From the NCBI GenBank assembly GCA_964345045.1, contig CAYFPM010000001.1, forward strand, positions 467,784-531,783: DNA of 64,000 nt, written 5' to 3'. This DNA is from an uncultured Gammaproteobacteria bacterium. GTDB taxonomy: Bacteria; Patescibacteriota; Patescibacteriia; Magasanikbacterales; UBA922. A program made the translations under genes and the position numbers. The notes below the pieces were generated by a model. That model ran no database searches. It was not told where the DNA came from and worked only from the letters and a program-made list of their open reading frames with translations. Positions 8,484-63,688 of the stretch are shown piece after piece. Every line of letters starts with the position of its first letter. Within the stretch, counting starts at the first letter, position 1.

Positions 8484-8941
8484 TTTAGATTGATTTTGTA
8501 TATACATTTTTTTCTTTCACCACGAGTGTACATATCCATATCTTTTGGTAAATCTACTATATCTACCAATTCCCCACCAAGTCTTTCACAAGTTTTTTTA
8601 GAAGCTTCATTGTCGGGATTACAAGTAATTAATAAAAAGTCTAAATTGTGTTTTTTGGCTAACCCCAGTAATAATTTCACACTTCTGGCTGCATAGTGAT
8701 GCCCTCTAAAATTTTCATGAACTTTGTAGCCAATATGACCTCTATACTTAATATTCTCATTGTTGCCAATTCTTAAATCAATTTGCCCCATTTCCTCTTT
8801 CGTACTTGCGTTAACCATTTTGAATTTATAAGCTGGTACATAATCTTTTTCTGGAATAGCTGGATTTTTCTCAATCAAAATCAAACTAAGCTCATTATCA
8901 ATAAGCTCCTCCGGATCTAAAAATTTAAATTCTTCTTTCAT
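8480..8941 (-). CDS. GNAT-family N-acetyltransferase inserted between sufB and sufD
   Basis: 153 aa; core GHIGYKVHENFRGHHYAARSVKLLLGLAKK resembles GNAT motif A (acetyl-CoA binding). It is translationally coupled (ATGA) to sufD. Confidence 0.5.
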   Translation of the reverse strand: MKEEFKFLDPEELIDNELSLILIEKNPAIPEKDYVPAYKFKMVNASTKEEMGQIDLRIGNNENIKYRGHIGYKVHENFRGHHYAARSVKLLLGLAKKHNLDFLLITCNPDNEASKKTCERLGGELVDIVDLPKDMDMYTRGERKKCIYKINLK

Positions 8942-8974
8942 AAAATTATAAAATCAAAAATCTTAAATCTGCAT

Positions 8975-10387
8975 TTATCCAATACTTCCTTCCATCTCCA
9001 GCTCAATTAATTTATTAAGCTCGAGAGCATATTCTAATGGCAAAGCTTTTACTACAGGCTCTATAAAGCCCGCTACCACCATTTGCATAGCTTGTTCCTG
9101 ACTCATTCCCCTACTCATAAGGTAAAAAATTTCATCATCCCCAATCTTACCAACTCTGGCTTCGTGAGCAATGTCTACCAGGTTATTATCAATCTTCATA
9201 TATGGGTGCGTGTTCGAAACTGACTCTGGATCCATGAGCAGAGCATCACACTCTACGTTCACAGCCGATCTTTCGGCTTTTTTTAAAACCTTTACTAGTC
9301 CACGATAAGTAGAAATTCCCCCACCAGCCGAGATAGACTTGGCAGCTATGGTTGATTTGGTTTCTGGAGCAGCATGAATTACTTTGCTACCAGTATCTTG
9401 ATTCTGGCCTGGCCCTGCAAAAGCTACCCCCAAACTATCGCTCCTAGCGCCCCGACCACGGAGGACCGAACAAGGATAAAGCATAGTCACTCCACTACCC
9501 ATATTGCCATTGATCCACTCTACTACTCCATTCTCGTCAACAATGGCTCGCTTGGTATTTAGGTTATAAGTGTTTTTACTCCAGTTTTCAATTGAATAAT
9601 AACGAACCCGAGCATTTTTCTTTACAAAAATTTCTACTCCACCAGCATGCAAAGAATTTTTGGTGTATCTGGGGGCGCTACAACCTTCTATATACTGTAC
9701 ATCACTGCCTTCGTCGGCAATTATTAAGGTATGTTCAAACTGGCCACCAGACTCGGCATTCATACGGAAATAAGCTTGGAGGGGCAAATCAACCTTTACT
9801 CCTTTTGGTACATAGATAAAAGTTCCACCCGACCAAACTGCGGCATGCAGCATTATAAATTTGTGATCATTGATCGGGATGCACTGCGTCATGAAGTATT
9901 CTTTGATTAGCTCAGGATATTTCTCTACGGCCACATCCATGTTTTCAAAAATAACGCCCTTTTCTTCCAAATCTTTTTTAATATTGTGGTAGACCACATC
10001 GCTGTCGTACTGGGCACCTACGCCAGCCAGAGCTGTTTTTTCGGCCTCTGGAATGCCCAGTCTATCAAAAGTATCTTTGATATCTTCCGGCACATCTTCC
10101 CAGCTAGTTGCTTCTTCTGTTCCGGGGCGAATGAAATAAACGATTTCATCTAAATTAAGATTTGATAAATCCGGCCCCCAAGTTGGTAGCGAAGTTTCCT
10201 TATAAAGTTCCAAAGCTTTCAATCTTTTTTCCAGCATCCATGCTGGTTCATTCTTTTGTTTTGAAATTTCTTTAACCACCTCTTCGCTTACACCAGGTTT
10301 GGATTTATAAGAAGATCGATCGATGTTGGCATCGTCGTATAGAGTACGGGAAGGTGAAAATGGGAGTTGGGTTTTGGTATTAGTCAT
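8975..10387 (-). CDS. sufB: Fe-S cluster assembly protein SufB
   Basis: 470 aa with full-length similarity to SufB (e.g. ...SGGTFIYVPKGVKV..., HEARVGKIGDDEIFYLMSRGMSQEQA). Confidence 0.95.
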   Translation of the reverse strand: MTNTKTQLPFSPSRTLYDDANIDRSSYKSKPGVSEEVVKEISKQKNEPAWMLEKRLKALELYKETSLPTWGPDLSNLNLDEIVYFIRPGTEEATSWEDVPEDIKDTFDRLGIPEAEKTALAGVGAQYDSDVVYHNIKKDLEEKGVIFENMDVAVEKYPELIKEYFMTQCIPINDHKFIMLHAAVWSGGTFIYVPKGVKVDLPLQAYFRMNAESGGQFEHTLIIADEGSDVQYIEGCSAPRYTKNSLHAGGVEIFVKKNARVRYYSIENWSKNTYNLNTKRAIVDENGVVEWINGNMGSGVTMLYPCSVLRGRGARSDSLGVAFAGPGQNQDTGSKVIHAAPETKSTIAAKSISAGGGISTYRGLVKVLKKAERSAVNVECDALLMDPESVSNTHPYMKIDNNLVDIAHEARVGKIGDDEIFYLMSRGMSQEQAMQMVVAGFIEPVVKALPLEYALELNKLIELEMEGSIG

Positions 10388-13454: not shown

Positions 13455-13599
13455 AATTATTTTTTTACAAATACAAAAAGAAGTGTAACACACTTCTTTT
13501 GAAAATTTAAGTTACCTTTCATTTCTTTTCAAAAGATAAAAAGAAAGGGAAGGTGACAAGTAGTTTGTTTAGCTAGGTGTAGGGGCAGTTGGTCGTGTT

Positions 13600-15207
13600 C
13601 TACTTTACGCCATGCATGCCGCGGTTCAAAAGTGGAACCAGCAGAAGCAAGAGAAAAGCAGCCGCCAAAGCAACGTATCCCAACGGTCCAAAGACCGATG
13701 AGAAGTTCGCCAGGCTATCGAACGAAGACAGCAATTCTGGTGAGTAATTTTGATTTTCACTCAAAATTCCCGCCATTTTTGCTGCCTCCCCTGCTACCAG
13801 ATTGGTTTCTCCAGACCCGGCGGTAAGCTTGGCAATCACTCCGCCAGCATGGTGCGCCATAGCCACCGACAAGAACCAAGCTCCCATGACAGTTCCGCCC
13901 ATCTCCTTGGGGGTGAGCTTGGTAACGAGCGACAGACCAATTGGCGAAAGGCAAAGTTCTCCGGTGGTGTGCAACAGATACCCTACGAGCAAGAAGATCA
14001 TGGGAATGACTGCCGCTTGTTTCACAACCGTGTCCGTTCCCTCGGTCACACTGATATCGGCAACCGAAACAAACCGAACTGACCATGCCAAAACCAGGAA
14101 ACCCAGCCCAAGCTGAGCCAGCCCCAACACAAACTTGGTGGGGGCGGATGGTGGCCAGCGGCTCTTGGCCAACCACTTCCACAGTTTGTCGAAAGGAGTT
14201 GCCAGAAGCAGAATCAGTGCGGGGTTCACAGATTGGAACCATGCTGTGGGGACTTCGAATCCGGCGATCGTTCTGTTCACGTTGGAATTGGTGAACAAAT
14301 TGATCGAAGATCCAGCCTGCTCGAAAAAGGCAAAAAAGATCATGGTGAAGACGAAGAGCGTCAAGACCACGAAGAGTCTATCCCTCACGATTTTCTCACT
14401 ACGAAGGGCTTTCACGAAGATGTAGAGCAACACCAGAATGCAGAAGGGAGTGAGGATATTTCCCATCAGCTCGTAATTCTTCATGAGCCAGGCGAAAAGA
14501 ACCACGCTCAAGAAAGACAGGATGTAGATGGAGTTTTCTGTGCTCACCCCGGGCAGAAGGTTCTTTTCGAGTTTCTGCCTATCGGGCGGATCCCCATTCG
14601 GACCAAGTTTCCCCTGCCCTAGGCCAAAGGTGATCAACCCGATTAGCATACCAACTCCGGCGATTCCAAATCCGTAGGACCAGCCAAATTTGGCTCCGAC
14701 CCAGCCACACAAGAGACCCGAGATTACTGCTCCCAGGTTGATCCCCATGTAGAAGATGGTGAACCCACCATCCCTTCGAGCATCGTTCTCTCGGTAGAGG
14801 CCGCCAACCATATTTGAAATGTTCGGCTTGAACATGCCATTGCCAACGATCAAGAAGGCCAAGGCAATGTAGAGGAAGGTTTCGGTTTCGATGGCCATCA
14901 CGAAGTGACCAATAGCCATGAGAATCGCCCCGAGCAGGACAGTCTTCTTGAAGCCAAGGTATAGATCCGCGATCCGGCCTCCGATGAAGGGCGTGGCGTA
15001 CACCAGAGCTCCGTAGGCGGCGTAAATACCGTAGCTCTTGGCCTTGGCCGCCTCTGTACCCATCTCGTAGAAGAGCGTGCTGGTGAGATAGAGTACGAGC
15101 AAAGCTCTCATGCCGTAGAAGCTAAAGCGCTCCCACATTTCGGTCATGAAGAGCATGAAGAGCTCCGGTGGGTGCTTTTCTTTGGTTGTGATTTCTTCAG
15201 TCGTCAA
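13600..15207 (-). CDS. proton-dependent oligopeptide transporter (POT/PTR2 family, DtpT-like)
   Basis: 535 aa; signature EMWERFSFYGMRALLVLYL (ExxERFxYYG), 12-14 TM helices. The whole gene is about 50-55% GC in a roughly 33% GC background, which is why both strands show many overlapping spurious ORFs. Confidence 0.85.
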   Translation of the reverse strand: MTTEEITTKEKHPPELFMLFMTEMWERFSFYGMRALLVLYLTSTLFYEMGTEAAKAKSYGIYAAYGALVYATPFIGGRIADLYLGFKKTVLLGAILMAIGHFVMAIETETFLYIALAFLIVGNGMFKPNISNMVGGLYRENDARRDGGFTIFYMGINLGAVISGLLCGWVGAKFGWSYGFGIAGVGMLIGLITFGLGQGKLGPNGDPPDRQKLEKNLLPGVSTENSIYILSFLSVVLFAWLMKNYELMGNILTPFCILVLLYIFVKALRSEKIVRDRLFVVLTLFVFTMIFFAFFEQAGSSINLFTNSNVNRTIAGFEVPTAWFQSVNPALILLLATPFDKLWKWLAKSRWPPSAPTKFVLGLAQLGLGFLVLAWSVRFVSVADISVTEGTDTVVKQAAVIPMIFLLVGYLLHTTGELCLSPIGLSLVTKLTPKEMGGTVMGAWFLSVAMAHHAGGVIAKLTAGSGETNLVAGEAAKMAGILSENQNYSPELLSSFDSLANFSSVFGPLGYVALAAAFLLLLLVPLLNRGMHGVK

Positions 15208-15263
15208 GGTTGTCCCCTTCTGTCTGCGAGCGATCCACTCTTTGTTTGTTTTTTCTAGCTAGT

Positions 15264-15317
15264 ACTAGAGGATCGCCAAAATAGATATAAAGCATATTTA
15301 CTTTGAAGATCCTCTAG
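15264..15317. promoter_or_regulatory. 11-bp inverted repeat (ACTAGAGGATC ... GATCCTCTAGT) in the 5' region of the POT transporter gene
   Basis: Perfect 11-bp arms separated by 32 nt, 57-110 nt upstream of the transporter start codon; a candidate operator or attenuator structure. Confidence 0.3.
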
Positions 15318-15438
15318 TTATTTACTACTTGTCAGGAACTCTCCTTAATAATAAATAAAAAGAGTAATATATTACCCTTTTTATTATCAAAAGCAGTTTA
15401 CTGATTAATTTTGTTTTGGTCAAATCTGCTAACTTAAG

Positions 15439-33391: not shown

Positions 33392-33970
33392 TTATCTTTG
33401 CAAGCTTATATCGTAAACCACTTTTTCAATTTTACTATTGGCTTGCTTGGCCTGATCAAATTTGTTTCGCAAATAACTAGTCAAATCAAATTCTATCAAC
33501 TCTCCTATTATTTCATTAGAAGCTTCGGCACATTTTTTTACCATTGTCTCATCTTTGTTGGTAGCCGCTTTTATAGCATAGCGGTATAGTTCCCCAGGCA
33601 AATCACAAAGCCCCGCAAGGAACACTCCTTCCTCTATATTTAAGTTAGCTACTTTGCTTACTTTTTTATTATCAATAAAATTCATAAAAAGCTGCGCTTC
33701 TACAAATTCTTCTTGGGCAGCTTTGAGAGATCCTTCTTGCAGCATATTGCCATCTTTTTTGTAGGCCGTGTGCAGTGATTTTAAGATTTGTAAACTTTGT
33801 TTTAATTTTTCACGAGCTTCTTTGGTATTCCCTCTGTGCAAATCAAAGATAACTCTTTTTGACAAATGGAGTGAATCGCCGCTTCTTTTTATGATATCTC
33901 GTCTTTTTTCAGCTCTTTTGTGCAAAAAAGTTTTCAATGAATTTATGTATTTTTTGTCTACAAATTTCAT
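33392..33970 (-). CDS. hypothetical all-alpha protein
   Basis: 192 aa, charged and helical; no motif I can assign. Confidence 0.35.
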   Translation of the reverse strand: MKFVDKKYINSLKTFLHKRAEKRRDIIKRSGDSLHLSKRVIFDLHRGNTKEAREKLKQSLQILKSLHTAYKKDGNMLQEGSLKAAQEEFVEAQLFMNFIDNKKVSKVANLNIEEGVFLAGLCDLPGELYRYAIKAATNKDETMVKKCAEASNEIIGELIEFDLTSYLRNKFDQAKQANSKIEKVVYDISLQR

Positions 33971-50178: not shown

Positions 50179-50310
50179 CATACTCATTATGCTCATTTTA
50201 CCTAGAAAAATAAGATCTGACAAGGATTCCCTTCTATTTATCTAAAAACAAACTCGCTTTTGCAAGTCTGTTTATTTTTTTAACTACAATTTACATGATA
50301 AAATATTTCT

Positions 50311-50389
50311 GTCCGCGTAGCTCAGCCAGGTAGAGCGCTCAGTCTACTAAACGAAGCAGAGGTCGTCGGTTCAAATCCGATCGCGGACA
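50311..50389 (+). tRNA. tRNA-like gene with canonical acceptor, D and T arms but a non-canonical, 5-nt-expanded anticodon region (identity undetermined; possible pseudo-tRNA)
   Basis: GTCCGCG-TA-GCTC-AGCCAGGTA-GAGC ... GTCGG-TTCAAAT-CCGAT-CGCGGAC-A. The 27 nt between the D stem and T stem (GCTCAGTCTACTAAACGAAGCAGAGGTC) cannot be folded into a 5-bp anticodon stem with a 7-nt loop. GCTCAG occurs twice (50320-50325 and 50337-50342). Confidence 0.45.
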
Positions 50390-50401
50390 TCTCTCTAAAA
50401 A

Positions 50402-52459
50402 CTACCCGACTAATTTTAAAAACTCCGTTTCTGACAAAATATTTACTCCCAATTGCTTGGCTTTGGCAAATTTACTACCAGGATTTTCTCCTACAATCAC
50501 ATAATCTGTTTTTTTGCTAACAGAGCCAGACACGTCTCCCCCTTTTTCACGAATTTTTTCTTTGGCTTCGTCTCTACCCAAAGACTGCAAAGTCCCTGTC
50601 AATACAAAAATCTTTCCAGATAACTTTTTATTTTTAGTTTTTGATTTTTGGTTTTTTACAACTATCCCGGCTTTTAACAAATTATTTATTAATCTTTGAT
50701 TATCAATATCTTGAAAAAATTCAAAAATAGATTCGGCTACTTTTGGACCAACATCGTCAACTTGTTCCAATTCTTCTTGACTTGCTCCCATTAGATTATC
50801 TATATTTTCAAAATTATCTGCCAATCGAACAGCTGTCTCTTCTCCAACTTGATTAATACCAAGTGAAAATACAAATCTAGATAAGGTTATACTTTTTGAC
50901 TTTTCTATAGCTTCTATTAAATTTTCAGCAGATTTTTCTGCAAATCTTTCAAGAGGTTCTAGATCTCCTTTTTTAAGATTAAAAATATCAGCCACATCTT
51001 TTATCAAACCACACTCTACCAATTGTTCTACAATTTTTTTACCAAGGCCATCTATATTAAAAGCTTTTTTGGCTACAAAATGAATAATTCTGTTTAATTC
51101 TTGTGCATAGCATTTGGAATTGGAGCAAAACAAAGCTGCAGAAATAGCTCCCTTTTTACTACTTACATTTTTTCTAATTACATCCGATTTACAAATTGGA
51201 CATTTTTTTGGCTCTTTAACTTTTTTCTCTTCACCTGTTCTCATTTTATCCAAAACTTTGACTACCTTTGGGATAATGTCCCCGGCCTTTTCTACCACCA
51301 CAGTATCCCCAATTTTTATTCCCAATCTTTTTATTTCATCAAAATTATGCAAAGTAGCGTGTGTTACAGTGGTCCCTGCCAAATAAACTGGTTCCATAAA
51401 AGCTACAGGGGTAAGCGCTCCGGTTCTACCCACTTGAACATAAATATCTTTTATTTTGCTAATCCCTTCTTCGGCAGCAAATTTTAGAGCTATAGCCCAT
51501 CGCGGAGCTTTGCCTGTAAAACCCAAAATGTCTTGATATTCTTTACTATTAACTTTTATAACAACACCATCTACCCAAAAAGGTCTGGAATGTTTTTCTT
51601 TTTCCCATTTTTTCCAAAAAGAAATAATTTTTTCTAAGCTATTTGTTTTTAGCCAATTATTATCGGTAAGAAATCCCAGATCTTTGAGAGTTTCTAGTTC
51701 ACCAGCTTGATCTTTGGTAGCTTTTTCTACAAATTTTTCCGGCAAAGAAATATCTCTATCTACTTTTGATATATCATAAGCAGTAAAAGACAAACCTCTT
51801 TTGGCCACAATATTTGGATCTAGCTGTCTTATAGTACCGGCAGCTACATTTCTAGGATTAGCATATTTTGTTTGGCCTTTTTCTTCTCTTTCTTTATTTA
51901 TCTTGTCTAGCAAAGCGCCAGAAAGCCAGATTTCTCCCTCTACAACTCCGGAAAAAGGTTTTTTGAGACGCAGTGGTACAGATTGAATAGTTCGTACATT
52001 TTGAGTTACATCTTCTCCCACTTTGCCGTCTCCTCTTGTAGCAGCATTTACCAATTCTCCATTTTTGTAAGTCAAAACTGCATGTAGACCATCTATCTTT
52101 AATTCTGCGGTATAAACAATTTCTTTATCCCCCAAATGAAACTCTTTTTCTAAAAATTTTTTTACCCGATCTTGCCAATTTTTTAAATCTGTTTCATCAA
52201 AAGCGTCATTAAAAGACCACTGTGGTACAGTGTGCTTAATTTTTTTAAACTTATCGAGAGGCTTACCTGCCACCCGCTGAGTAGGAGAATTTTTATCTAC
52301 CAAATTTGGATATTTTTCTTCTATTTTTCTCAGTTCATCCATCAGCCCCTCGTACATTTTATCTGTTACTTCCGGATCATTTTTTACATGATATCTATAA
52401 CGCAAATCATCTATTTGTTCTCTTAATCTTTTTACTTTTTGTTTTAATTCTTTATTCAT
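50402..52459 (-). CDS. ligA: NAD-dependent DNA ligase
   Basis: ORF to 52480; likely start MNKELKQKVKRLREQIDDLRYRYHV. Adenylation motif KIDGLHAV (K-x-DG), OB fold, Zn-finger C-x2-C...C-x-C, HhH and BRCT regions. Confidence 0.9.
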   Translation of the reverse strand: MNKELKQKVKRLREQIDDLRYRYHVKNDPEVTDKMYEGLMDELRKIEEKYPNLVDKNSPTQRVAGKPLDKFKKIKHTVPQWSFNDAFDETDLKNWQDRVKKFLEKEFHLGDKEIVYTAELKIDGLHAVLTYKNGELVNAATRGDGKVGEDVTQNVRTIQSVPLRLKKPFSGVVEGEIWLSGALLDKINKEREEKGQTKYANPRNVAAGTIRQLDPNIVAKRGLSFTAYDISKVDRDISLPEKFVEKATKDQAGELETLKDLGFLTDNNWLKTNSLEKIISFWKKWEKEKHSRPFWVDGVVIKVNSKEYQDILGFTGKAPRWAIALKFAAEEGISKIKDIYVQVGRTGALTPVAFMEPVYLAGTTVTHATLHNFDEIKRLGIKIGDTVVVEKAGDIIPKVVKVLDKMRTGEEKKVKEPKKCPICKSDVIRKNVSSKKGAISAALFCSNSKCYAQELNRIIHFVAKKAFNIDGLGKKIVEQLVECGLIKDVADIFNLKKGDLEPLERFAEKSAENLIEAIEKSKSITLSRFVFSLGINQVGEETAVRLADNFENIDNLMGASQEELEQVDDVGPKVAESIFEFFQDIDNQRLINNLLKAGIVVKNQKSKTKNKKLSGKIFVLTGTLQSLGRDEAKEKIREKGGDVSGSVSKKTDYVIVGENPGSKFAKAKQLGVNILSETEFLKLVG

Positions 52460-53235
52460 TATAAAAATGCTAAGTACCAATCTAAAATATTTTTACCCCA
52501 AAACATGGTTATAATTGTCCCCAAAACCAAATATGTCCCAAAGGCAGTTTCGCCTTTCCAAGTTTTTTTCTTTAGTATAATTTGAATCACACTAAAAATT
52601 GCTCCTAGGACATAAGCCAAAATGAGAGCAACCAGTACCAATGGCCAGCCCAAAATTGTTCCCATAAGAATTCCATAACGAACATCTCCCCCACCTATCC
52701 AAGTACCTTTTGATAAAATATACATCAGAAAGAAAAAACCAGCCCCAACCAAAATTCCCAAAAGCATAGAATCCCAACTATGCCAACCAAAACCAATAGA
52801 AATTACAAACAAAAATATACTTAAAGTAACGGTGGTAAAAGTAAGAATTTCTCTATAATAAAGATCATAAAGAAATATAAAAGTTAAAAAAACAATTAGC
52901 ATCCAATCTCTAATCATTTCTGGGTTCATACTCCAAGCCATAGGTTTGTGATATATGCTTATACCCAAAAAAGCCAATCCCATCCATATCTCCACAATTG
53001 GATAATTTTTGTTTATTCTGCACTTACAATTTCGACATTTCCCAAGCAAAGTAAGATAACTAAAAACAGGAACATTATCGTACCACTTTATTTGGTATCT
53101 ACAGTCTGGACACATGGATCTCGAACGACTAATACTTATATTCTCCCTAGTCCTCCAAACCCAAGCATTAACAAAGCTGCCAAAAGCAGAACCTGCTAAA
53201 AAAATTATTATTTTGTAAATTATATCCATACCCAA
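52459..53235 (-). CDS. pilD: type IV prepilin peptidase (A24 family) PilD
   Basis: 258 aa; N-terminal tetracysteine CPDCRY...CRNCKCRI; conserved Asp-containing TM loops (ISKGTWIGGGDVRYGILMG). Confidence 0.8.
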   Translation of the reverse strand: MGMDIIYKIIIFLAGSAFGSFVNAWVWRTRENISISRSRSMCPDCRYQIKWYDNVPVFSYLTLLGKCRNCKCRINKNYPIVEIWMGLAFLGISIYHKPMAWSMNPEMIRDWMLIVFLTFIFLYDLYYREILTFTTVTLSIFLFVISIGFGWHSWDSMLLGILVGAGFFFLMYILSKGTWIGGGDVRYGILMGTILGWPLVLVALILAYVLGAIFSVIQIILKKKTWKGETAFGTYLVLGTIITMFWGKNILDWYLAFL

Positions 53236-53271
53236 TTAAATATGTTGCTCCTTATAATTATAGCAGTTTGG

Positions 53272-53300
53272 CAAAAGAAAAAAACCCCCTGTCGGAGGTT
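53272..53300 (-). terminator. rho-independent terminator after the pilin gene
   Basis: A-run, ACCCCCTGTCGGAGGTT imperfect hairpin, T-run (on the minus strand the T-run follows the stem). Confidence 0.5.
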
Positions 53301-53315
53301 TTTTTGTGACTATTT

Positions 53316-53747
53316 CTATTGGATACCTACTGGGCTGGCGGAAATTCCACCGGCGTTTAGATTGGCCACACCTGTTTCTAGAGTAGTAGATACGGTATAA
53401 GTACTTCCATCAACAGAGTAATATGTATAAGAACCACTAGCCAATGGATCGGCAGGGACCAAACCTAGGTAAGGTGAAGAACATCCAGCAGTACCCCATC
53501 CACTTGAGTTAAGACAAGCATAACTTCCGGCACCAAGTGTTACAGCAGGATCTGCTGTTGGATAAGCATCGTTTTGACTAAAGTAACTTTCCAAAGCGGT
53601 TTGGATAGCTTTCATGTCGGAAACTCTCTTAGAATCTCTGGCTTGCTCACGAGCACTATTTAGAGCTACAACTGCCAAAGTTGACAATAGACCAATAATA
53701 GCGATTACAACCAACAACTCAATAAGGGTAAAACCTTTTTTATTCAT
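53316..53747 (-). CDS. type IV pilin / pseudopilin (prepilin-type N-terminal cleavage/methylation domain)
   Basis: MNKKGFTLIELLVVIAIIGLLSTLAVVALNSAR: class III signal (G|FTLIELLVV) with Glu+5; 143 aa. Confidence 0.8.
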   Translation of the reverse strand: MNKKGFTLIELLVVIAIIGLLSTLAVVALNSAREQARDSKRVSDMKAIQTALESYFSQNDAYPTADPAVTLGAGSYACLNSSGWGTAGCSSPYLGLVPADPLASGSYTYYSVDGSTYTVSTTLETGVANLNAGGISASPVGIQ

Positions 53748-53793
53748 GTTCTCACCCCCTTTCTCGTGTAAAATTTAATTAACATAATACGCA

Positions 53794-54207
53794 TTATAAT
53801 TTCAAAGCTTTTTTAACCTTGTCTACTGTTTCCGATGGTTTAAAATGAGCTTTGATAAGGTAATCTACTGCACCAAGTTTTATACCTTTGTCTACGTCAT
53901 CTTTTTGTCCCAAGTTGGTAAGCATAATTACAGGGACTTTTTCTGTTTTTTTATCGGCTTTTAATTTTTTTAATATTGTAAAGCCATCCATTTTTGGTAA
54001 AAGTACATCTAGCAAAATAATATCCGGAGATACTTCTTTGGATAGTGTTAGACCTTTGTCTCCACTTTCGGCGACTTCTACTTCAAAACCTTCCATCTCA
54101 AATTTTGTTTTGTAAATATTAGCCAAAAAAGTGTCGTCTTCCACTAATAGGATTTTTTTATCTTTTTTATCTGCCATATCTTTTTTTAAATTACGTTTAT
54201 TATACAA
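53794..54207 (-). CDS. single-domain response regulator (CheY/PilH-like)
   Basis: 137 aa; receiver residues LLVEDD, ILLDVLLPKMDG (phospho-acceptor Asp), LTNLG, YLIKAH (Lys). Confidence 0.75.
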   Translation of the reverse strand: MYNKRNLKKDMADKKDKKILLVEDDTFLANIYKTKFEMEGFEVEVAESGDKGLTLSKEVSPDIILLDVLLPKMDGFTILKKLKADKKTEKVPVIMLTNLGQKDDVDKGIKLGAVDYLIKAHFKPSETVDKVKKALKL

Positions 54208-54249
54208 AATTTATTTTTTACTGTGAAGGTTACTGTGGATAGATACAAA

Positions 54250-55419
54250 TTATTTTTTGTTATCTACCATTCCTCGTAGAGCCAAACCAATAGTTACAGC
54301 CATACGTGGACCATAACTATCTAAAATACTCTTTAGACCTTGTTGGTATACGACTCTGGCCCAAGGATCTCCTACAAACACCTTTAACGGAAAATTCTCT
54401 TTTATTATTTCTGCTATTGGTGGGAAGACACTAGCCCCTCCTGTTAAAATTATTTTTTCTGGATGTTTGTTTTCATTGCCTGTTTGGCTTAAAAACAAAT
54501 CAAAACTATATTGAATTTCTTTTATAATTGGGTCTAATAAATTTAAAAATAAATCGGTTGGAATTTTGCCTATTCCTAACCTAGAAATATCTGATTTTAC
54601 TATTTCTGTTAAATTTTTTTCTATCCCCAAAGATTCTTCTAAAACTGTACTAAAATGATTTCCTCCAACTTGGATACTACGATGTGTAACTGGTAAACCT
54701 TGATCTACTATAAAAAAATTAGTCCTCTCAGCTCCTACATCTACAATCATAGCCGTAGCTTTGTCTCTCCCCACCAAGCATCTTTCCAAAGCAAAAGCTT
54801 CTGTTTCTAATTCTTCTAGTTGGAAACCGGCTTTTTGAAAAATACTAGTATAAAAACGAACCAAATCTTTTGGAGCAGCCGTAACCAAAACTCTAATGCT
54901 TTTGCCTTTTTCGGATGGGGGCGATGGTACTACTTGATGCACCACCTGCATTTCTTCTATTGGACGTGGTAGCATTTTTTTCACCTTGGCCATTACATGA
55001 TGAGAAATTTCGTCTTTTGAAACCTTGGGCAAGGTAATAATGGCATGAAAAACTTGAGAAACAGGTAGACTAGCGGTAACTTTTTTGGTAGTTATTTTGG
55101 CAGCTTCGGCAGCAGCTTTTAGCAAATTAGCATACTTGTCTATGCGAGGATCTGCTTTTCCAGCCAAATTTTTGTTTAGTTGTTTTTCATCGCCTTTGTT
55201 TTCGTAAATTATAGTTTTGGCATCGCCTTTGCCCTCGGCCAAAAGATCTTGCGCTGTCTTGTCTTTATTAGTATCTACATGAATATCCAGATTTTGATCG
55301 GCCATGGCATAAGTCCAAAGCAAAGGTCTTCCTTTGACCTTGTGCAATTCGACTAATTTTATTCCACCGGCTCCAATATCTACTCCCAGTGAACTTTCAG
55401 TTTTGCTAAATAAACTCAT
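54250..55419 (-). CDS. pilM: type IV pilus assembly protein PilM (actin-like ATPase fold)
   Basis: 389 aa; N-terminal LGVDIGAGGIKLVEL and C-terminal ...ILTGGASVFPPIAEII... match the PilM/FtsA-like fold. Confidence 0.75.
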   Translation of the reverse strand: MSLFSKTESSLGVDIGAGGIKLVELHKVKGRPLLWTYAMADQNLDIHVDTNKDKTAQDLLAEGKGDAKTIIYENKGDEKQLNKNLAGKADPRIDKYANLLKAAAEAAKITTKKVTASLPVSQVFHAIITLPKVSKDEISHHVMAKVKKMLPRPIEEMQVVHQVVPSPPSEKGKSIRVLVTAAPKDLVRFYTSIFQKAGFQLEELETEAFALERCLVGRDKATAMIVDVGAERTNFFIVDQGLPVTHRSIQVGGNHFSTVLEESLGIEKNLTEIVKSDISRLGIGKIPTDLFLNLLDPIIKEIQYSFDLFLSQTGNENKHPEKIILTGGASVFPPIAEIIKENFPLKVFVGDPWARVVYQQGLKSILDSYGPRMAVTIGLALRGMVDNKK

Positions 55420-57703: not shown

Positions 57704-57791
57704 TTTATTCACCTCTCTCCCCTTTTTTGGTATAATACTTTTAGTTAATTTAAAATAAGCGATCTTAAATCGCATATCTTTCTGTATTGGT

Positions 57792-58409
57792 ATGGCCGAT
57801 ACAAATCAACAACCCAGAATAAATCGAGAAACCGTCGATAGCCAAATGGAGCACTCTATAAACGAAGCTCCAAATTTGATGTCCGAGTATCAAGCAACTC
57901 CCCAATCTATAACTCCAGAAATCACCAAACCTGCAATAGAACAAGTTGGAGAAACCTTGCCCAAACCAGAAGTAGAAAGAAAAACCGAAATAGAACCATC
58001 CAAAGAATCAATTGAAAAAAAAGAGGAAGAAGGTTTCTTGGAAGATGCTCTAGAAGGGATAAAAAGTAAACTAGGTAGAGGCAAAAAGAAACAAGTCCAA
58101 ATACCACAAGTAAGAGACGAAATTACCCTAAAAGTAGAAAAAGTAATGGAAGAAGGACTAAAAGAAGCTTTTCACGCCATGACTCCGGTACAAAGACAAG
58201 AATTCAAAATAAAGGGAGAAGAAACTGCTATAAAAATTAGAGAACTTTTGAAAAGTACTCATGTAAAAGTAAAAAAGATTTTTACTCTTTTGGTAGAGTG
58301 GTTAAAAATGATACCAGGAGTAAATAGATTCTTTTTGGAACAAGAAGCCAAGATCAAAGCCGACAAAATAATTTCTCTAAAACATTTTGATAAGCACTCT
58401 AAAAAGTAA
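57792..58409 (+). CDS. hypothetical charged protein upstream of the T4CP-like ATPase
   Basis: 205 aa, E/K-rich, predicted helical. Confidence 0.35.
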   Translation: MADTNQQPRINRETVDSQMEHSINEAPNLMSEYQATPQSITPEITKPAIEQVGETLPKPEVERKTEIEPSKESIEKKEEEGFLEDALEGIKSKLGRGKKKQVQIPQVRDEITLKVEKVMEEGLKEAFHAMTPVQRQEFKIKGEETAIKIRELLKSTHVKVKKIFTLLVEWLKMIPGVNRFFLEQEAKIKADKIISLKHFDKHSKK

Positions 58410-58440
58410 GTCTTCTGCTGTTTCAAAGAGTAAAACTGAT

Positions 58441-61011
58441 ATGCTAACAATCTTTCAATTTGCCGCCACTCCAGACTTTACTAGTCCCCCAAGAGCCAAC
58501 CTTTTAGAAGATCCTTTTTTCTTTTGGCTTTTTTTTCTTTTGGCAATTGTTCTTATAATTTTAGGCTTTTTATTTTTGTTGCGTTCTCTTCTAAGAGGTA
58601 CTCACAGACAAACAAAAGCTTTTAATAGAGTGGTACTGCGAATACTTGTCCCCAAAGAAAGAAAATCAGAAGGCCAAGGAGGTCAAGCCGGACAAGAAGA
58701 TAGACTAGAACAAGTAAAAGAAGAAATTGGTATTACAGAAACTTTTTTTTCGGCCATAGCCGGACTCAAGGCCCAAAGAGGAATCCTAAACTGGCTACGT
58801 GGCAGAAATGATCATTTTTCTTGCGAAGTAGTAGTACAAAATGGTCTTATTTATTTTTATATAGATGTTCCGGCTCAGATGCGTCAAGGGATAGAGCAAC
58901 AAGTTCATGCTCAATATCCCTATGCCGAAATAGAAGAAATGACTGATTACAATATTTTTCACGAGCAATCCAAAATTGTTGGAGCTTATCTAGTATCCGA
59001 TCGAGGAGGTTCTTTTCCTTTCAAAACTTACAAAAAAATGGAGTCCGATCCAATGGTAGCGGTTTTAAATGTGCTTGCCAAAATAAGAAATGGCAACGAT
59101 GCCGCCGCTGTACAATTTGTATTACGATCGGCTCACAAAAAATGGCGTCGCAAAGGGATCGAGATAGTAAGAGAGGTTAAAAAAGGTAAAAAATTCGAAG
59201 AAGTAGCCCACAAAACTTGGGTATCCAAATTTTTTGGTTGGTTTGCCAAGGGTGTTTCTGAATCATTGCAAAAACCTGGGGAAAACAAAGATACTCCTTA
59301 TCAATTATCCCCTCTCGAAGAAGAAATGATAAAAGGAATGGAAGAAAAACTTTCCAAAGGTGGTTTGGGAGTCACCATTCGTTTGCTTAGCGTAGCCGAC
59401 AACTCCGAATCTGCCAAAATGAATTTGGACAACTTAATCAACTCTTTTAGCCAGTACAATTTGTATCGTTATGGCAATAGTTTCAAAGCTGTCCTACCAA
59501 AAAATCAATCTCTTTTGATAAGAGATTTTATATACCGTTCACACAATGACAAAAGAGAAGTAATTCTAAACACCGAAGAAATTGCTAGTTTGTGGCACTT
59601 GCCTTTGCACTCTACCGAAGTCCCAAATATCAAATGGCTCACTGGTAGACAAGCTCCTCCACCATCCAACCTGCCAACCTCTGGTCTATTGCTTGGCTAT
59701 ATTAATTATCGTGGCCACAGACAAGATGTGTTCCTAAAAGAAGCCGACAGACGAAGACATCTCTACATTATTGGTAAATCTGGTAGTGGTAAGTCTGTGA
59801 CTATTGCCAACTTGGCAATTCAAGATATTAAAGATGGAAAAGGAGTAGCTATAGTAGATCCTCATGGAGATTTGGTAGAAACAGTTCTAGAACACGTCCC
59901 AAAAGAAAGAGCCGACGACGTGGTGATTTTTGATCCATCGGATCTAGAGCGTCCTATAGGACTAAATATGCTAGAAGCTGGAGACGAAGATCAAAAAGAC
60001 TTTGCCGTACAAGAAATGATCTCTATCTTTTACAAACTTTTTCCACCAGAAATGATTGGTCCTATGTTTGAGCACAACATGAGAAATGTGATGCTAACTC
60101 TAATGGCTGATCTCAATGATCCTGGGACTATTATAGATATCCCTAGAATGTTTACTGATGACGAATATGTAAAAAAGTACTTGGTAAAACTAAAAGACCC
60201 GGTTGTAAAAGCTTTTTGGGAAAAAGAAATGGCCAAGACCAGTGACTTTCACAAATCTGAAATGCTTGGTTATCTTATTTCCAAAGTAGGTCGTTTTGTG
60301 GGCAATGAGATGATGAGAAATATCATGGGGCAACAAAAATCCGGCTTTAACTTTCGTGATATTATGGACAACAAAAAAATTCTTTTTGTTAATTTGTCCA
60401 AAGGTAAAACTGGGGAGGTAAATGCCAAACTACTTGGCCTAATCACCGTAGCCAAACTACAAATGGCGGCCATGGCTCGTGCCGATATGCCAGAAGAACA
60501 AAGAAATGATTTTTATCTATATATTGATGAGTTCCAAAATTTTGTAACTGATTCTATCTCGACTATTTTGTCCGAAGCTAGAAAGTATAAGCTAGATCTT
60601 ACAATTGCTCACCAATATATGGGGCAGCTGGCCGACGACAAAGGTAAGAATGATATTCGAGACGCAGTTTTGGGTAATGTAGGTACTATGATGGTTGGTA
60701 GGATTGGCCCAGAAGACTCAGAGATTCTAGCCAAAGAGTTTGCTCCTACTTTTGGTTCTTATGATCTGTTAAACACCCCTCAATATTCTTTTTATGCCAA
60801 AGAATTAATTGATAACCAGTCTAGTAAACCATTTTTGCTACGAGCTTATCCTCCGCAGTCTGGTAGCAAGGAATTGGCCAGCGCAATTAAAGAACTCTCT
60901 AGACTCAAATTTGGACGAGACAGAAATATTGTAATTTCGGAAATTATGGAAAGAACAAAATTGGATCAACCTGATCCAGGCAAAACCGATATGGTAGAAA
61001 CATCTTTATAA
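58441..61011 (+). CDS. membrane-anchored FtsK/HerA-superfamily ATPase of the VirD4/TraG/TraD (type IV coupling protein) type
   Basis: ORF from 58387; likely start MLTIFQF. N-terminal TM (FFFWLFFLLAIVLIILGFLFLL), a roughly 350-aa middle region, and a C-terminal ATPase: Walker A IIGKSGSGKSV followed by VAIVDPHGDL, Walker B FYLYIDEFQNF, and the conserved TIAHQYMGQL (Q-x3-QL), as in T4CPs. Confidence 0.6.
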   Translation: MLTIFQFAATPDFTSPPRANLLEDPFFFWLFFLLAIVLIILGFLFLLRSLLRGTHRQTKAFNRVVLRILVPKERKSEGQGGQAGQEDRLEQVKEEIGITETFFSAIAGLKAQRGILNWLRGRNDHFSCEVVVQNGLIYFYIDVPAQMRQGIEQQVHAQYPYAEIEEMTDYNIFHEQSKIVGAYLVSDRGGSFPFKTYKKMESDPMVAVLNVLAKIRNGNDAAAVQFVLRSAHKKWRRKGIEIVREVKKGKKFEEVAHKTWVSKFFGWFAKGVSESLQKPGENKDTPYQLSPLEEEMIKGMEEKLSKGGLGVTIRLLSVADNSESAKMNLDNLINSFSQYNLYRYGNSFKAVLPKNQSLLIRDFIYRSHNDKREVILNTEEIASLWHLPLHSTEVPNIKWLTGRQAPPPSNLPTSGLLLGYINYRGHRQDVFLKEADRRRHLYIIGKSGSGKSVTIANLAIQDIKDGKGVAIVDPHGDLVETVLEHVPKERADDVVIFDPSDLERPIGLNMLEAGDEDQKDFAVQEMISIFYKLFPPEMIGPMFEHNMRNVMLTLMADLNDPGTIIDIPRMFTDDEYVKKYLVKLKDPVVKAFWEKEMAKTSDFHKSEMLGYLISKVGRFVGNEMMRNIMGQQKSGFNFRDIMDNKKILFVNLSKGKTGEVNAKLLGLITVAKLQMAAMARADMPEEQRNDFYLYIDEFQNFVTDSISTILSEARKYKLDLTIAHQYMGQLADDKGKNDIRDAVLGNVGTMMVGRIGPEDSEILAKEFAPTFGSYDLLNTPQYSFYAKELIDNQSSKPFLLRAYPPQSGSKELASAIKELSRLKFGRDRNIVISEIMERTKLDQPDPGKTDMVETSL

Positions 61012-61024
61012 TTTGAATAACATT

Positions 61025-61145
61025 CTTAACTGTCATTGCGAGGGAGCGATAGCGACCGTCGCAATCTCAACTAAGAAAGTATTATAGATTGCCACCCTTC
61101 GACTTCGCTCAGGGCAGGATCGGACACAATGCTCCTCGCAATGAC
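61025..61145. repeat. GC-rich structured intergenic element closed by a long-range 17-bp inverted repeat
   Basis: CTGTCATTGCGAGGGAGC (61024-61041) pairs with GCTCCTCGCAATGACTG (about 61131-61147). The interior contains the hairpin GCGAC-C-GTCGC and the segment CCACCCTTCG, which matches the first 10 nt of the palindromic element. About 52% GC in an AT-rich spacer. Confidence 0.35.
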
Positions 61146-61293
61146 TGAAAAGTATAAATACAATTATCCACCTTCTCTCCCCTATCTATCCCCCACTCTT
61201 GCTGACAAGCAAAAACTAACTTGTTAAAATATATAAAAATAATTCAAACCTTCGGGTTTGATTTTAATTCAAAATAAAAATCCAAACAAAAAT

Positions 61294-62001
61294 ATGAACG
61301 CTCTCTCAGATATCCTTTCGAATAACGACGATATATTTCCACAACAGTCTGATGTTACTGAACAATCCTCAGTGAACAATGATATTGAATTGGAAACAAA
61401 CAAAGATAACTTCAACAATGGAACAATGGAACAATCGGACAATGAGAAATCAGAAGCAAACCTCGAGTCAACACACCACTCCCCGTCTAATCCAGACCTG
61501 CAACAACTAAAAACCATAATCTACTCTATGCAAGATCAGCTCTCTAGTATGCTCCGAATGATAAATGGTGAAGAGATCAAAAAACATGATCTAGCCACCG
61601 AAGGCAACAGCGAACTAATGCCCACTGGTGAGCAAATTGTAGAAGGAGTTTTCAATGGCGAAAAAATGATTGGCCCAGATGGCAAGGAATACTCTATCCC
61701 CCCAAACTATGCTAGCAAGTCTAAGCTAGTAGAGGGAGACATGATGAAGCTAACTATTACCAATCGTGGTCAGTTTATTTACAAATCTATTGCTCCTATA
61801 GAAAGAAAACGTCTAAAAGGAGAATTGGTTCATGATCCTGTCACCGGACAATGGAGCATTCTGGCCGATGGCAAAACCTATAAGACACTTACAGCCTCTG
61901 TCACCTATTTTAGGGGCAAAGCTGGAGACGAAGTAGTATTTTTTGTTCCAGAGACAGGAAACAGTGAATGGGGGGCGGTTGAGAATATTGTTGGTAAATA
62001 A
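61294..62001 (+). CDS. hypothetical protein with disordered N/S/E-rich N-terminus
   Basis: ORF from 61258; likely start MNALSD; no assignable motif. Confidence 0.35.
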   Translation: MNALSDILSNNDDIFPQQSDVTEQSSVNNDIELETNKDNFNNGTMEQSDNEKSEANLESTHHSPSNPDLQQLKTIIYSMQDQLSSMLRMINGEEIKKHDLATEGNSELMPTGEQIVEGVFNGEKMIGPDGKEYSIPPNYASKSKLVEGDMMKLTITNRGQFIYKSIAPIERKRLKGELVHDPVTGQWSILADGKTYKTLTASVTYFRGKAGDEVVFFVPETGNSEWGAVENIVGK

Positions 62002-62100
62002 GTAATTTTATAAAAGTAAAGAAAAAAAGGCATCTTGACAAAGATGTCTTTTTGGTTTAATTTAATATACTGCTTTATAGCAGTAGGAGGAAACAAAAGC

Positions 62101-62625
62101 GTGAAAACGATCTTTCGAATTACATTGATGATGCTCTTGCTTCTGGCCGCATGCAAAGAGGACAACACTCGCTGCAGCGGAAGGTTCCAAAACAGTAACA
62201 GAACGAAGACGTTCAATACCAACGTTGATCGTTTCATGAAACTGGTACTACAGGAGAACCCGGAGAGACAAATCGCTGTAGGTTTGCACAATGAGAACAA
62301 ATCTATCGAACGATTTGCCCACGGCCGCCACTTCCCAGATGGCAATGGGTACACGATTTTTCCAGACGAGGAGCCCTGGACGCACCTCATGTTCCATGAG
62401 TGCATCGAGGGGAAATGGAAATATTTTGGCGAAGTAGAACTACCTCGCCAGCCAATAATTCCCGATTCTCCACCCAAAACCCTGAAATTCGACCGTATTT
62501 CTACAAGAAAGGCAGAAAAAGACGGCCTCATCAACTGGCTTGCTCGAAAGCCAAGCTACCTCAAAGAAAAACCTCTCCTAGGTGGACAGGTAACGAGGTA
62601 TGTCGTAAAAAAGCCCGACTACTAG
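62101..62625 (+). CDS. putative lipoprotein (GC-rich gene)
   Basis: Alternative GTG start gives VKTIFRITLMMLLLLAACKED with lipobox LLAAC. About 50% GC; terminator at 62716-62746. Confidence 0.4.
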   Translation: MKTIFRITLMMLLLLAACKEDNTRCSGRFQNSNRTKTFNTNVDRFMKLVLQENPERQIAVGLHNENKSIERFAHGRHFPDGNGYTIFPDEEPWTHLMFHECIEGKWKYFGEVELPRQPIIPDSPPKTLKFDRISTRKAEKDGLINWLARKPSYLKEKPLLGGQVTRYVVKKPDY

Positions 62626-62715
62626 GTTCACTAGCCTACTGGCTAGTAATATAAGTAACCACCCTGTCGGCTCCACTCCAAACAGCAGCAAAAAATGATG
62701 CTTTTTGAAATAAAC

Positions 62716-62746
62716 AAAACCCACTATTGCAATAGTGGGTTTTGTT
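62716..62746 (+). terminator. rho-independent terminator (20-bp perfect palindrome)
   Basis: AAAACCCACTATTGCAATAGTGGGTTTTGTT. Confidence 0.7.
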
Positions 62747-62917
62747 ATTGACAAATCTACAAAAACGTGGTATTCTTAGACGTTCTTGCCTACCAGGCAG
62801 AACCACTGCTGGGGAGCAGTGAGCAACGCAATCGGCGTAGCTAAAATCATGCAGGCGGCTTTTAAAATGCCCACCTGATATGTGCCCCACGCGCCCTCAA
62901 CCTCTAAGGAGGCTCGT

Positions 62918-63217
62918 ATGGCATACCCCGACAAGATCAAATATTCACGAGAGTTCAAGACAGCAGTGCAGTCACTCCGCCGATGTGACAACAAAGCAGA
63001 AATGCTGAGGCTGTTGAAAGAAGGCTCCCCCTATCTAGGAAGGCATCTATCTACGCTGGCACAGAATACTATTGAGCCAGCAAGAATCCTAGAACTGCTT
63101 GATTCTGACGATACAGAGACGCTTCGAGAAGAAGCTCAACTGATTGCAGACTACCAGGCAGCGTACTCCATGTGGAGCAAAATCATAGACGCCCACACTG
63201 GCAACTGCAAGGCCTAA
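62918..63217 (+). CDS. hypothetical protein (GC-rich gene)
   Basis: ORF from 62882; likely start MAYPDKIKY, preceded by a strong SD AAGGAGG 6 nt upstream; 99 aa. Confidence 0.4.
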   Translation: MAYPDKIKYSREFKTAVQSLRRCDNKAEMLRLLKEGSPYLGRHLSTLAQNTIEPARILELLDSDDTETLREEAQLIADYQAAYSMWSKIIDAHTGNCKA

Positions 63218-63415
63218 TTGCTTATTATAATTGGTAGTAGGGTATGAGAAGGCAAGTAAAATCGTGTGCTAGTGGATGGCAACATCCCAGAGCACCGTGT
63301 AAGCCCTTCTCCCCAGAAAAAAGTTACTTACACAACAGCTAAGTGCCTTTTACCTGGAATTACAAAGAAAAAAACCGACTTACTATGTAAGTCGGTTTTT
63401 TAGACTCAAAGTTTA

Positions 63416-63688
63416 TTAAGCTTTGTCTGGGTCTGTCATGTGACCAGAAACCAATTTGGTCATGGCAAACATGTTTACTTGCTTTTGACCGTCGAATAGT
63501 GGCAACAATTTATCATCTGCAATAATTTCACGTTTGTTTTCTGGATTTTGCAAATCATTTTTCTTGATGTACTCCCAAAGTTTTTTTACAACTTCTCCTC
63601 TAGCCATAGGTCCTTTACCTACTACGGCTTCTAGTTCCTCTGAAAGGTTTAGCGGTTTCAGAAGAGCTGGGTTTGCTTTTCTTGGCAT
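63416..63688 (-). CDS. SWIB/MDM2-domain protein
   Basis: 90 aa; LSEELEAVVGKGPMARGEVVKKLWEYIKKNDLQNPENKREIIADDKLLPLFDGQKQVNMFAMTKLVSGHM matches the bacterial SWIB domain pattern. Confidence 0.7.
   Translation of the reverse strand: MPRKANPALLKPLNLSEELEAVVGKGPMARGEVVKKLWEYIKKNDLQNPENKREIIADDKLLPLFDGQKQVNMFAMTKLVSGHMTDPDKA

Follow-up and report, generated by a model that had tools for sequence, protein, structure and literature searches.

The stretch of DNA analysed here, 64,000 nucleotides of contig CAYFPM010000001.1 (the window, in what follows), belongs to a Candidatus Magasanikbacteria chromosome, and in it a module of three genes on the same strand (+), at 57792-62001, encodes a membrane-anchored ATPase together with two flanking proteins that we call c2 and c3. 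The ATPase is made of an N-terminal domain, DUF8128, with a VirB4-like predicted fold, joined to a VirD4-like motor, and we consider it, with a probability of about 0.55, to be a hexameric translocase of DNA or nucleoprotein that would feed a separate channel, perhaps the type IV secretion system (T4SS) of the candidate phyla radiation (CPR), encoded elsewhere in the genome. The protein of the window is an ordinary member of a catalogued, uncharacterised family, and it is this family, more than the locus, that deserves attention: it differs from the canonical type IV coupling proteins (T4CPs) by its extra VirB4-like domain, by the absence of linkage to T4SS or relaxase genes, and by its status as part of the core genome.

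The ATPase and its motor domain

The open reading frame (ORF) of the ATPase runs over 58387-61011 (+) and would give 874 amino acids (aa) from a TTG; from the ATG at 58441 it gives 856 aa (58441..61011, +, stop codon counted), a product identical to the database protein P0001 and consisting of DUF8128 plus a T4CP-type ATPase. The 857 aa of the original prediction, which had been made from the letters of the window, is thus one residue too many, while the three ORFs were found at the places it had indicated and the motifs it had quoted are all present (GKSGSGKS, VDPHGDL, IDEFQ as YLYIDEFQ, and TIAHQYMGQL). The N-terminal membrane anchor also proposed there corresponds to one hydrophobic helix, F26-L47 (58516..58581, +), since Kyte-Doolittle windows exceed 1.6 only at residues 19-55. 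A positive cluster, RSLLRGTHRQTK, follows this helix and, because of it, the positive-inside rule would place the N-terminus outside and some 800 residues in the cytoplasm.

The T4CP-type nucleotide-binding domain, with a helical insertion and a C-terminal tail, occupies 59728..61008 (+) according to profiles and fold matches. Over residues ~437-780 it is matched in Pfam by T4SS-DNA_transf (PF02534; 1.3e-12, 47.7 bits with a cutoff of 20.1), TrwB_AAD_bind (PF10412; 6.5e-12, 45.5 bits, cutoff 20.5), TraG-D_C (PF12696; 4.4e-7, 30.3 bits, cutoff 22) and DUF87 (3e-9, above the gathering score), while FtsK_SpoIIIE and HerA_C stay below threshold and no match to CagE_TrbE_VirB (PF03135) or AAA_10 is reported in Pfam. 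Thus, of the profiles that the original prediction had proposed for a search, TraG-D_C, T4SS-DNA_transf and DUF87 all exceed the Pfam gathering score and AAA_10 is not reported. In NCBIfam the ATPase has only sub-threshold matches, to conjugative coupling proteins, and the TrwB profile matches it at 3e-8. Walker A (GKSGSGKS, residues 445-452, at 59773-59796, +) and Walker B (YLYIDE, residues 692-697, at 60514-60531, +) are intact, and invariant in 25 diverse family members.

In profile-profile comparison (HHalign) the C-terminal domain aligns with TrwB at 96-98% probability (E 2e-9 to 8e-14) and with the C-terminal domain of VirB4 at 86-93%, and it is nearer to the former. The alignment extends through TrwB residues 115-507, including the region of the all-alpha domain; a helical block of about residues 515-645, which sits between Walker A and Walker B, has a predicted local distance difference test score (pLDDT) of 45-62 in the full-length AlphaFold2 model. 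As a whole this model is of poor quality (pLDDT 64) and was used only for domain-level Foldseek matches, the best of which is full-length TrwK/VirB4, followed by TrwB, HerA, DotL and Cag-beta. Pfam, the TrwB profile, HHalign and Foldseek bear out the earlier proposal that the motor is of T4CP type and falls within the FtsK/HerA superfamily, to which VirB4 also belongs. With FtsK/SpoIIIE and HerA the protein shares the P-loop superfamily, whose members there are hexameric nucleic-acid pumps, and weak profile and fold matches; unlike them, it has no FtsK gamma domain, no multi-pass N-terminal domain and no HerA-type HAS barrel.

A predicted VirB4-like fold in the N-terminal domain

What the original prediction had called a large unassigned middle domain is indeed a large and separate domain, although it is not unassigned: residues 54-429 (58600..59727, +) form the alpha/beta domain DUF8128 (PF26449), which precomputed annotation assigns to P0001 and to all 120 listed homologues, while our own Pfam search did not report PF26449, and its predicted fold resembles that of the VirB4 N-terminal domain. 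When residues 54-429 were modelled alone with a diverse alignment of 42 sequences, the model reached a pLDDT of 89.9 and a predicted template modelling score of 0.87, so that the structure prediction proposed earlier for this domain gave a confident result. In a Foldseek search of solved structures the top 14 matches are all TrwK/VirB4 chains of R388 (E 1.6e-5 to 1e-2, probability 0.95-1.0, template modelling (TM) score 0.39-0.43, ~420 columns), after which there is a large gap, the VirB4 N-terminal domain being the sole match among solved structures.

Sequence comparison is silent on this relationship, as HHalign gave no signal (<1%) between DUF8128 and the N-terminal domain of VirB4, TrsD, or the N-terminal domain of TrsE. 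This silence is uninformative, because a true pair of VirB4 N-terminal domains, the proteobacterial one and that of staphylococcal TrsE, used as a control, also lies near zero (5.9% probability). The ATPase is therefore like VirB4 (TrwK of R388, TrsE of pSK41) in the order of its parts, an N-terminal domain and then an ATPase, in its size, at ~800-860 aa, and in the predicted fold of DUF8128; it differs from VirB4 in that no similarity of sequence is detectable between the N-terminal domains, its C-terminal domain is nearer to T4CPs, CagE_TrbE_VirB and AAA_10 are unmatched, and the gene has no VirB3, VirB6 or VirB8 neighbours. Our literature search found no paper on DUF8128, nor any on a T4CP with a VirB4-like N-terminal domain, and the databases hold no names for the long (1,000-2,000 aa) DUF8128 proteins.

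Relatives in phages

Full-length relatives of the ATPase are also found in phages. The ATPase matches PHROG 5156, a family of function unknown that includes SPO1 gp27.4, phage G gp156 and D6E ORF23, at E 9.8e-85 (residues 122-839 on profile positions 75-808 of 824), and the DUF8128 domain alone matches it at 7.6e-22. Against SPO1-type gp27.4, gp156 and D6E ORF23, HHalign gave 98-99% for the N-terminal domain and 99-99.9% for the C-terminal domain (97.9-99.9% overall), and the model of the N-terminal domain, compared with predicted viral structures (BFVD), matches gp156 of Bacillus phage G at E 2.4e-18 with a TM score of 0.60, as well as proteins of phages JL and Slash, and gp155 of phage G at 1.4e-6. 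As a set, these viral matches are much stronger than those in the PDB. A tblastn search returned 53 phage records. One is a Microcystis record, and the hosts of all the others are Bacillus, Lysinibacillus, Brevibacillus or Geobacillus, this last genus being represented by two records named 'Deep-sea thermophilic phage D6E'; the match to phage G covers 84% of the ATPase (6e-47).

The company of these phage ATPases varies. In SPO1-like phages the neighbours are the Replic_Relax protein gp27.3, the actin-like gp27.9 and small membrane proteins, in D6E an actin-like 'partition protein' and an integrase, and in phage G the neighbour of gp156 is gp155, which is VirB4-like by Pfam (P-loop_TraG, AAA_10). 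The pair gp155-gp156 is a natural pairing of a VirB4-like with a DUF8128-type ATPase; in the phage G sequence (L117, 4243-8385) gp155 lies directly upstream of gp156, and the N-terminal domains of both resemble the fold of the CPR domain. Pathria et al. (2012, PMC3357382) described in Bacillus phages a 'DNA translocation operon', in which the ATPase of this family is the proposed coupling ATPase/translocase and is accompanied by a relaxase and by proteins resembling VirB6 and MreB; they linked gp27.4 to orf201 of phage 0305phi8-36. The operon is dispensable for the laboratory growth of that phage, and its function was inferred (PMC3357382).

The homology between the CPR and phage ATPases thus spans both domains over the full length, while the phage proteins have no N-terminal membrane helix. 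Their operon partners, that is, the Replic_Relax/MobC-type relaxase-like protein, the actin-like ALP, the small membrane proteins and the VirB6-like protein, are absent from the window and from the 84 CPR loci described below, and c2, c3 and c4 (a protein of other CPR classes, introduced below) are unrelated to the proteins of the phage operon.

Relatives of another form, soluble and reduced to the C-terminal domain (~430-456 aa, 38-41% identity), occur on phage-like metagenomic contigs. Two of them, from IMG/VR (L096, 4935-6233, and L098, 4926-6296), have 432-456 aa, are 40-41% identical to the motor domain and carry neither a membrane helix nor DUF8128; their neighbours, judged by eye from the translations, are M23 peptidase-like, HNH-like or PD-(D/E)XK-like genes.

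Distribution in the candidate phyla radiation

More than 2,100 homologues of the ATPase were found, far more than chance could produce, the top 120 being full length with 67-75% identity, and the named ones among these 120 come from Candidatus Magasanikbacteria or Patescibacteria. NCBI names the family members 'type IV secretory system conjugative DNA transfer family protein'. With residues 1-430 as the query, 1,816 clusters, each represented by one sequence at 50% identity, were matched at E <= 1e-3, and the full-length members mostly have 780-880 aa. A scan of one genome per species gave at least 600 loci, from which 80 were kept, with 38-76% identity, in about 20 named CPR lineages: Magasanik-, Uhr-, Falkow-, Komeili-, Buchanan-, Doudna-, Berkel-, Staskawicz-, Moran-, Peregrini-, Peri-, Woese-, Curtiss-, Davies- and Levybacteria and Paceibacterota are among them. 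Judged by these sequence comparisons, the gene is strongly conserved in all major lineages of the CPR, in a manner that does not resemble mobile cargo, and the module is vertically inherited on the chromosome in these ultra-small bacteria.

A survey of Patescibacteria (Quinonero-Coronel et al. 2025, PMC12102498) had counted 5,713 homologues of VirD4-type T4CPs in 2,918 of 3,035 genomes (96%), only 148 of them near virB4, and had found VirB4 in 2,417 genomes (80%); its authors considered that these T4CP homologues were possibly 'exapted for other functions'. The ATPase described here very probably belongs to the same family as these orphan homologues, of which the gene of the window would be typical, while the survey did not deal with the N-terminal domain, the flanking genes or the phage relatives. 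In some CPR genomes a second ATPase paralogue, longer or in tandem, lies a few genes away (L039, 13633-16560; L050, 12226-15447; L058, 3587-6163) and carries the same T4CP-type Pfam domains, in line with the survey, where T4CP homologues number about two for each genome.

Flanking proteins and gene neighbourhood

The gene of c2 (57792..58409, +, from the ORF list) precedes that of the ATPase and encodes 205 aa. The N-terminal half of c2 is acidic and of low complexity, the C-terminal half is helical and conserved (...IPGVNRFFLEQEAKIKADKI...), and the protein has no membrane helix. The downstream gene, c3 (61294..62001, +), lies in an ORF that runs from a TTG at 61258 (247 aa), although the start is most likely the ATG at 61294, which gives 235 aa, equal to database protein P0270; a variable acidic N-terminus and a helical segment are followed by a conserved, beta-rich C-terminal part of ~130 aa (...IPPNYASKSKLVEGD.LKLTI...). 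Neither protein matched a family in Pfam, NCBIfam, PADLOC or PHROG. The c2 family has 1,213 database matches, every one unnamed or 'hypothetical', and c3 has 3,300, without a Pfam assignment; the hints for c3 in Pfam are sub-threshold and concern beta-barrels of the MazE/AbrB type and of the Mu-transposase C type, and a profile search of the PDB gave nothing significant, with DotY at E 0.45 as a mere curiosity.

To place these genes in context, ORFs were called in 84 loci and clustered by BLASTP, and the neighbours were recounted by phmmer on 81 independent loci with flanks of up to 8 kb. In 26 of the 81, c2 stands at position -1 on the same strand, and likewise in 26 of the 81 c3 is found on the same strand 1-6 genes downstream, mostly directly adjacent, so the earlier remark that two unassigned proteins flank the ATPase proved well founded. 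Both are soluble proteins specific to the CPR; they belong to the module in ABY1-type lineages and are candidate partners or substrate adaptors of the ATPase in a large subset of lineages. In other CPR classes position -1 is taken by a different small acidic protein, which is c4 in 19 loci and others in Microgenomates. That c2 and c4 might be one diverged family was considered and rejected, HHalign giving no signal between them, with a single c4 member reaching E 1.8e-4 against the c2 profile.

The rest of the neighbourhood consists of housekeeping genes. The gene dnaX lies near the module in 29 of the 84 loci, usually right after c3, and a SWIB gene in 5-7 loci, together with rmuC (10), a ribonucleotide reductase gene (7), a XerC/D-type recombinase gene (6), corA, lysS, prmC, tgt and a sigma-70 gene; cysS was counted in 17 of the 81 independent loci. 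None of the 84 fetched loci encodes a VirB4-like, relaxase-like or actin-like protein. The window itself has the same character, its annotation listing clpB, suf, ftsEX, ftsW, murG, divIC, gatCA, ligA and cysS. Annotation of the whole 64 kb contained no VirB4, relaxase, pilB, pilC, pilT or comEC, in agreement with the original prediction, which had seen no VirB4, relaxase or other T4SS parts there.

The comparison with canonical T4CPs (TrwB of R388, VirD4, TraG/TraD, DotL, Cag-beta) can now be drawn. The nucleotide-binding domain, with the region that aligns to the all-alpha domain of TrwB, the membrane anchor and the predicted action as a hexameric translocase are common to both. In contrast, the CPR ATPase has one membrane helix where T4CPs usually have two, carries ~375 additional residues that form a cytoplasmic domain after the anchor and before the motor, has no relaxase or T4SS genes nearby (in the 64-kb window, or within 8 kb in the 81 loci), and is a core chromosomal gene, whereas T4CPs are cargo of plasmids or of integrative and conjugative elements.

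Proposed mechanism and alternative explanations

The mechanism that we favour would comprise the following steps: (i) the ATPase would form a hexameric ring, as its relatives TrwB, FtsK and HerA do, on the side of the membrane that faces the cytoplasm; (ii) using ATP, it would thread a polymer, most probably DNA or nucleoprotein, through the central pore; (iii) it would pass this substrate on to a separate conduit, which would be needed because six single helices cannot form a channel; (iv) the best candidate for the conduit would be the chromosomal CPR T4SS, encoded elsewhere in most Magasanikbacteria, on which the ATPase would dock by way of its VirB4-like N-terminal domain; (v) and finally, c2 and c3 could act as adaptors or in substrate recognition. 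A partnership with a T4SS would be in keeping with the VirB4-like fold, with the pairing of gp155 and gp156 in phage G and with the presence of VirB4 in most genomes. A T4SS is also likely to be encoded elsewhere in this particular genome, because two Magasanikbacteria rows in Table S1 of the survey have 'Yes' for VirB4 (PMC12102498).

Several points weigh against this proposal. The partnership with a T4SS is circumstantial, there being no T4SS gene within 8 kb in the 81 independent loci, and T4CP homologues are commoner than VirB4 (96% versus 80% of genomes), so that by arithmetic on the survey's figures at least 501 genomes have a T4CP homologue and no detected VirB4, although the T4CP homologues were counted with generic VirD4 profiles, and other paralogues may be among them (PMC12102498). 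In S. epibionticum the T4SS genes proved essential but the t4cp homologue did not (PMC12102498), and the T4SS cluster of this organism (Se) has no recognisable coupling protein or relaxase (Wang et al. 2023, PMC10633639). The resemblance of DUF8128 to VirB4 comes from the comparison of a predicted structure, at a moderate TM score, without the support of sequence profiles, and in the other CPR classes c2 is replaced by unrelated small proteins.

Some of these same points would suit a translocase that handles DNA by itself, independently of any T4SS, be it in segregation or resolution in the manner of FtsK/SpoIIIE or as a DNA pump by another route, with c2 and c3 as accessories. Such a possibility, the main rival although in our view the less likely one, would draw on the neighbours related to DNA metabolism (dnaX, rmuC, the XerC/D-type recombinase, ribonucleotide reductase and SWIB, in the numbers given above), on the excess of T4CP homologues over VirB4, on a t4cp homologue that is non-essential where the T4SS is essential, and on phage homologues that sit beside actin-like partition proteins and an integrase. 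However, the adjacency to DNA housekeeping genes may be an ancestral gene order, the absence of VirB4 from draft metagenome genomes may come from their incompleteness, and a single helix per subunit cannot form a channel for DNA. FtsK, for its part, reportedly surfaced in a full-text match on Saccharibacterium TM7x, so that the ATPase need not stand in for it, and the idea of an FtsK replacement was set aside. The original prediction had offered, as one of its options, a DNA-uptake or translocation motor working with the neighbouring pilus genes, and pilD, a pilin, a response regulator and pilM do lie in the window at 52459-55419 on the minus strand, ~2.5-6 kb upstream; in L002, the closest complete relative, pilM is likewise not far from the module, and competence in CPR bacteria makes use of type IV pili and ComEC (PMC12857230). 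The nearness is real, but the link is not conserved: over the 81 independent loci pilM is a neighbour once, in that closest relative, and pilin and pilD never, so the adjacency is best taken as local gene order only. Moreover, pilM-cysS and the module of L002 are ~6 kb apart, the space being filled by pyrG, rplI, era and an exonuclease gene, all unrelated. In the window, cysS and a DUF3147 gene intervene, the pilus genes are read from the other strand, and no pilB, pilC, pilT or comEC is present. A neighbourhood not conserved in relatives was one of the refuting outcomes named in the original prediction; coupling to the pilus was accordingly rejected, and we judge it very improbable.

The remaining proposal, that of a HerA-like or MADS-like anti-phage defence ATPase, or else of cargo of an integrated mobile element or prophage, seems to us scarcely credible. 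PADLOC did return mad8 at 6.8e-15 and weak HerA matches, the nearest homologues outside the CPR are encoded by phages, and the soluble relatives reduced to the C-terminal domain are on phage-like contigs. The PADLOC matches, however, cover the generic P-loop core only, with scores no better than those of the T4CP profiles and with no partner defence genes in what is a housekeeping context, for which reasons the defence system named in the original prediction was rejected. As for cargo, no defence, integrase, relaxase or phage gene lies nearby in the window or in the CPR loci, save the XerC/D-type gene in 6 loci; the GC content of the module matches that of the host chromosome; and a single-copy, highly conserved gene, syntenic across a radiation of phylum rank, is the opposite of what defence islands and mobile cargo look like.

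Other features of the window

Upstream of c2 there is a candidate sigma-70-like promoter (57708..57736, +; TTCACC-17-TATAAT with TG, a consensus match), although promoter-like sites in the region are no commoner than expected from shuffled sequence. The structured element that had been noticed between the ATPase and c3 is a hairpin of ~115 nt (61032..61146, no strand assigned; z = -3.2) with terminal inverted repeats of 12 nt (GTCATTGCGAGG...CCTCGCAATGAC). It occurs once in the window and is absent from the 69%-identical relative L002, where only 15 nt separate the ATPase stop from the next gene, and from all other fetched loci; Rfam gave only sub-threshold noise for the hairpin and for the region 57.6-64 kb. 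It is a genome-specific insertion, perhaps a small element resembling a miniature inverted-repeat transposable element or a repetitive extragenic palindrome. The module is closed by a terminator-like hairpin, seen in the sequence as a 13-bp stem followed by a T-run (62024..62053, +).

Beyond this hairpin extends a GC-rich island of 1.3 kb (62054-63370; GC 0.46-0.50 versus ~0.35 around), enclosed by convergent terminator-like hairpins at 62024-62053 (+) and 63401-63369 (-). It contains an ORF of 193-196 aa with a lipoprotein-like signal (MMLLLLAAC) and another of 111 aa, neither of which matches any family; relatives lack the island, and none of the fetched loci contains a homologue of it. The stretch 62054-63040 folds much more stably than shuffled sequences do (z = -8.3, 20 shuffles), probably owing to several perfect hairpins. 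The 1.23-Mb relative, L002, has a GC-rich ORF of its own (8473-9330, -), which encodes 285 aa with a lipoprotein-like signal and immediately precedes the module. It recalls the island that follows the module in the window, but the two GC-rich sequences are unrelated. Next to the island, at 63416-63688 (-), a protein of 90 aa consists essentially of one SWIB/MDM2 domain (1.6e-29), and five other loci of the Magasanikbacteria type conserve such a SWIB protein a short way downstream, between the module and dnaX.

Further away, ARAGORN reports a tRNA-Ser of 82 nt at 50310-50391 (Rfam tRNA, 49 bits) with the unusual anticodon ACT, an assignment that is doubtful, as no standard anticodon arm could be drawn by eye. 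A Translin-family protein (33392-33970, -; Pfam 6e-19) is encoded beside a P-type cation ATPase, and to our knowledge Translin is uncommon in bacteria. The gene of a POT/PTR2 peptide transporter (13501-15400), with a GC content of ~0.44 versus 0.35 around it, may have been acquired horizontally.

Meaning of the family

A large part of the diversity of bacteria lies in the Patescibacteria, which live on other cells and are unable to synthesise nucleotides. The transport of DNA and protein across their envelope is a central question. The VirB4-N-like domain suggests either docking on the inner-membrane platform of a T4SS or a form intermediate between VirB4 and VirD4. A more daring reading, tentative and in our opinion improbable as a whole, is that the DUF8128-type ATPases could constitute a distinct third branch of the VirB4/VirD4 ATPases, common to CPR chromosomes and to the phages of spore-forming Firmicutes, which in the CPR would be a cytoplasmic motor of the core genome, independent of any conjugative T4SS, and would move DNA or nucleoprotein across the membrane with the help of c2 and c3. 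If this were true, the motor might let these bacteria, which do not make their own nucleotides, take up nucleic acid from their host cell, or it might serve in the handling of the chromosome at division. The phage operon is equally unexplained, and work on either the CPR ATPase or the phage system would inform the other.

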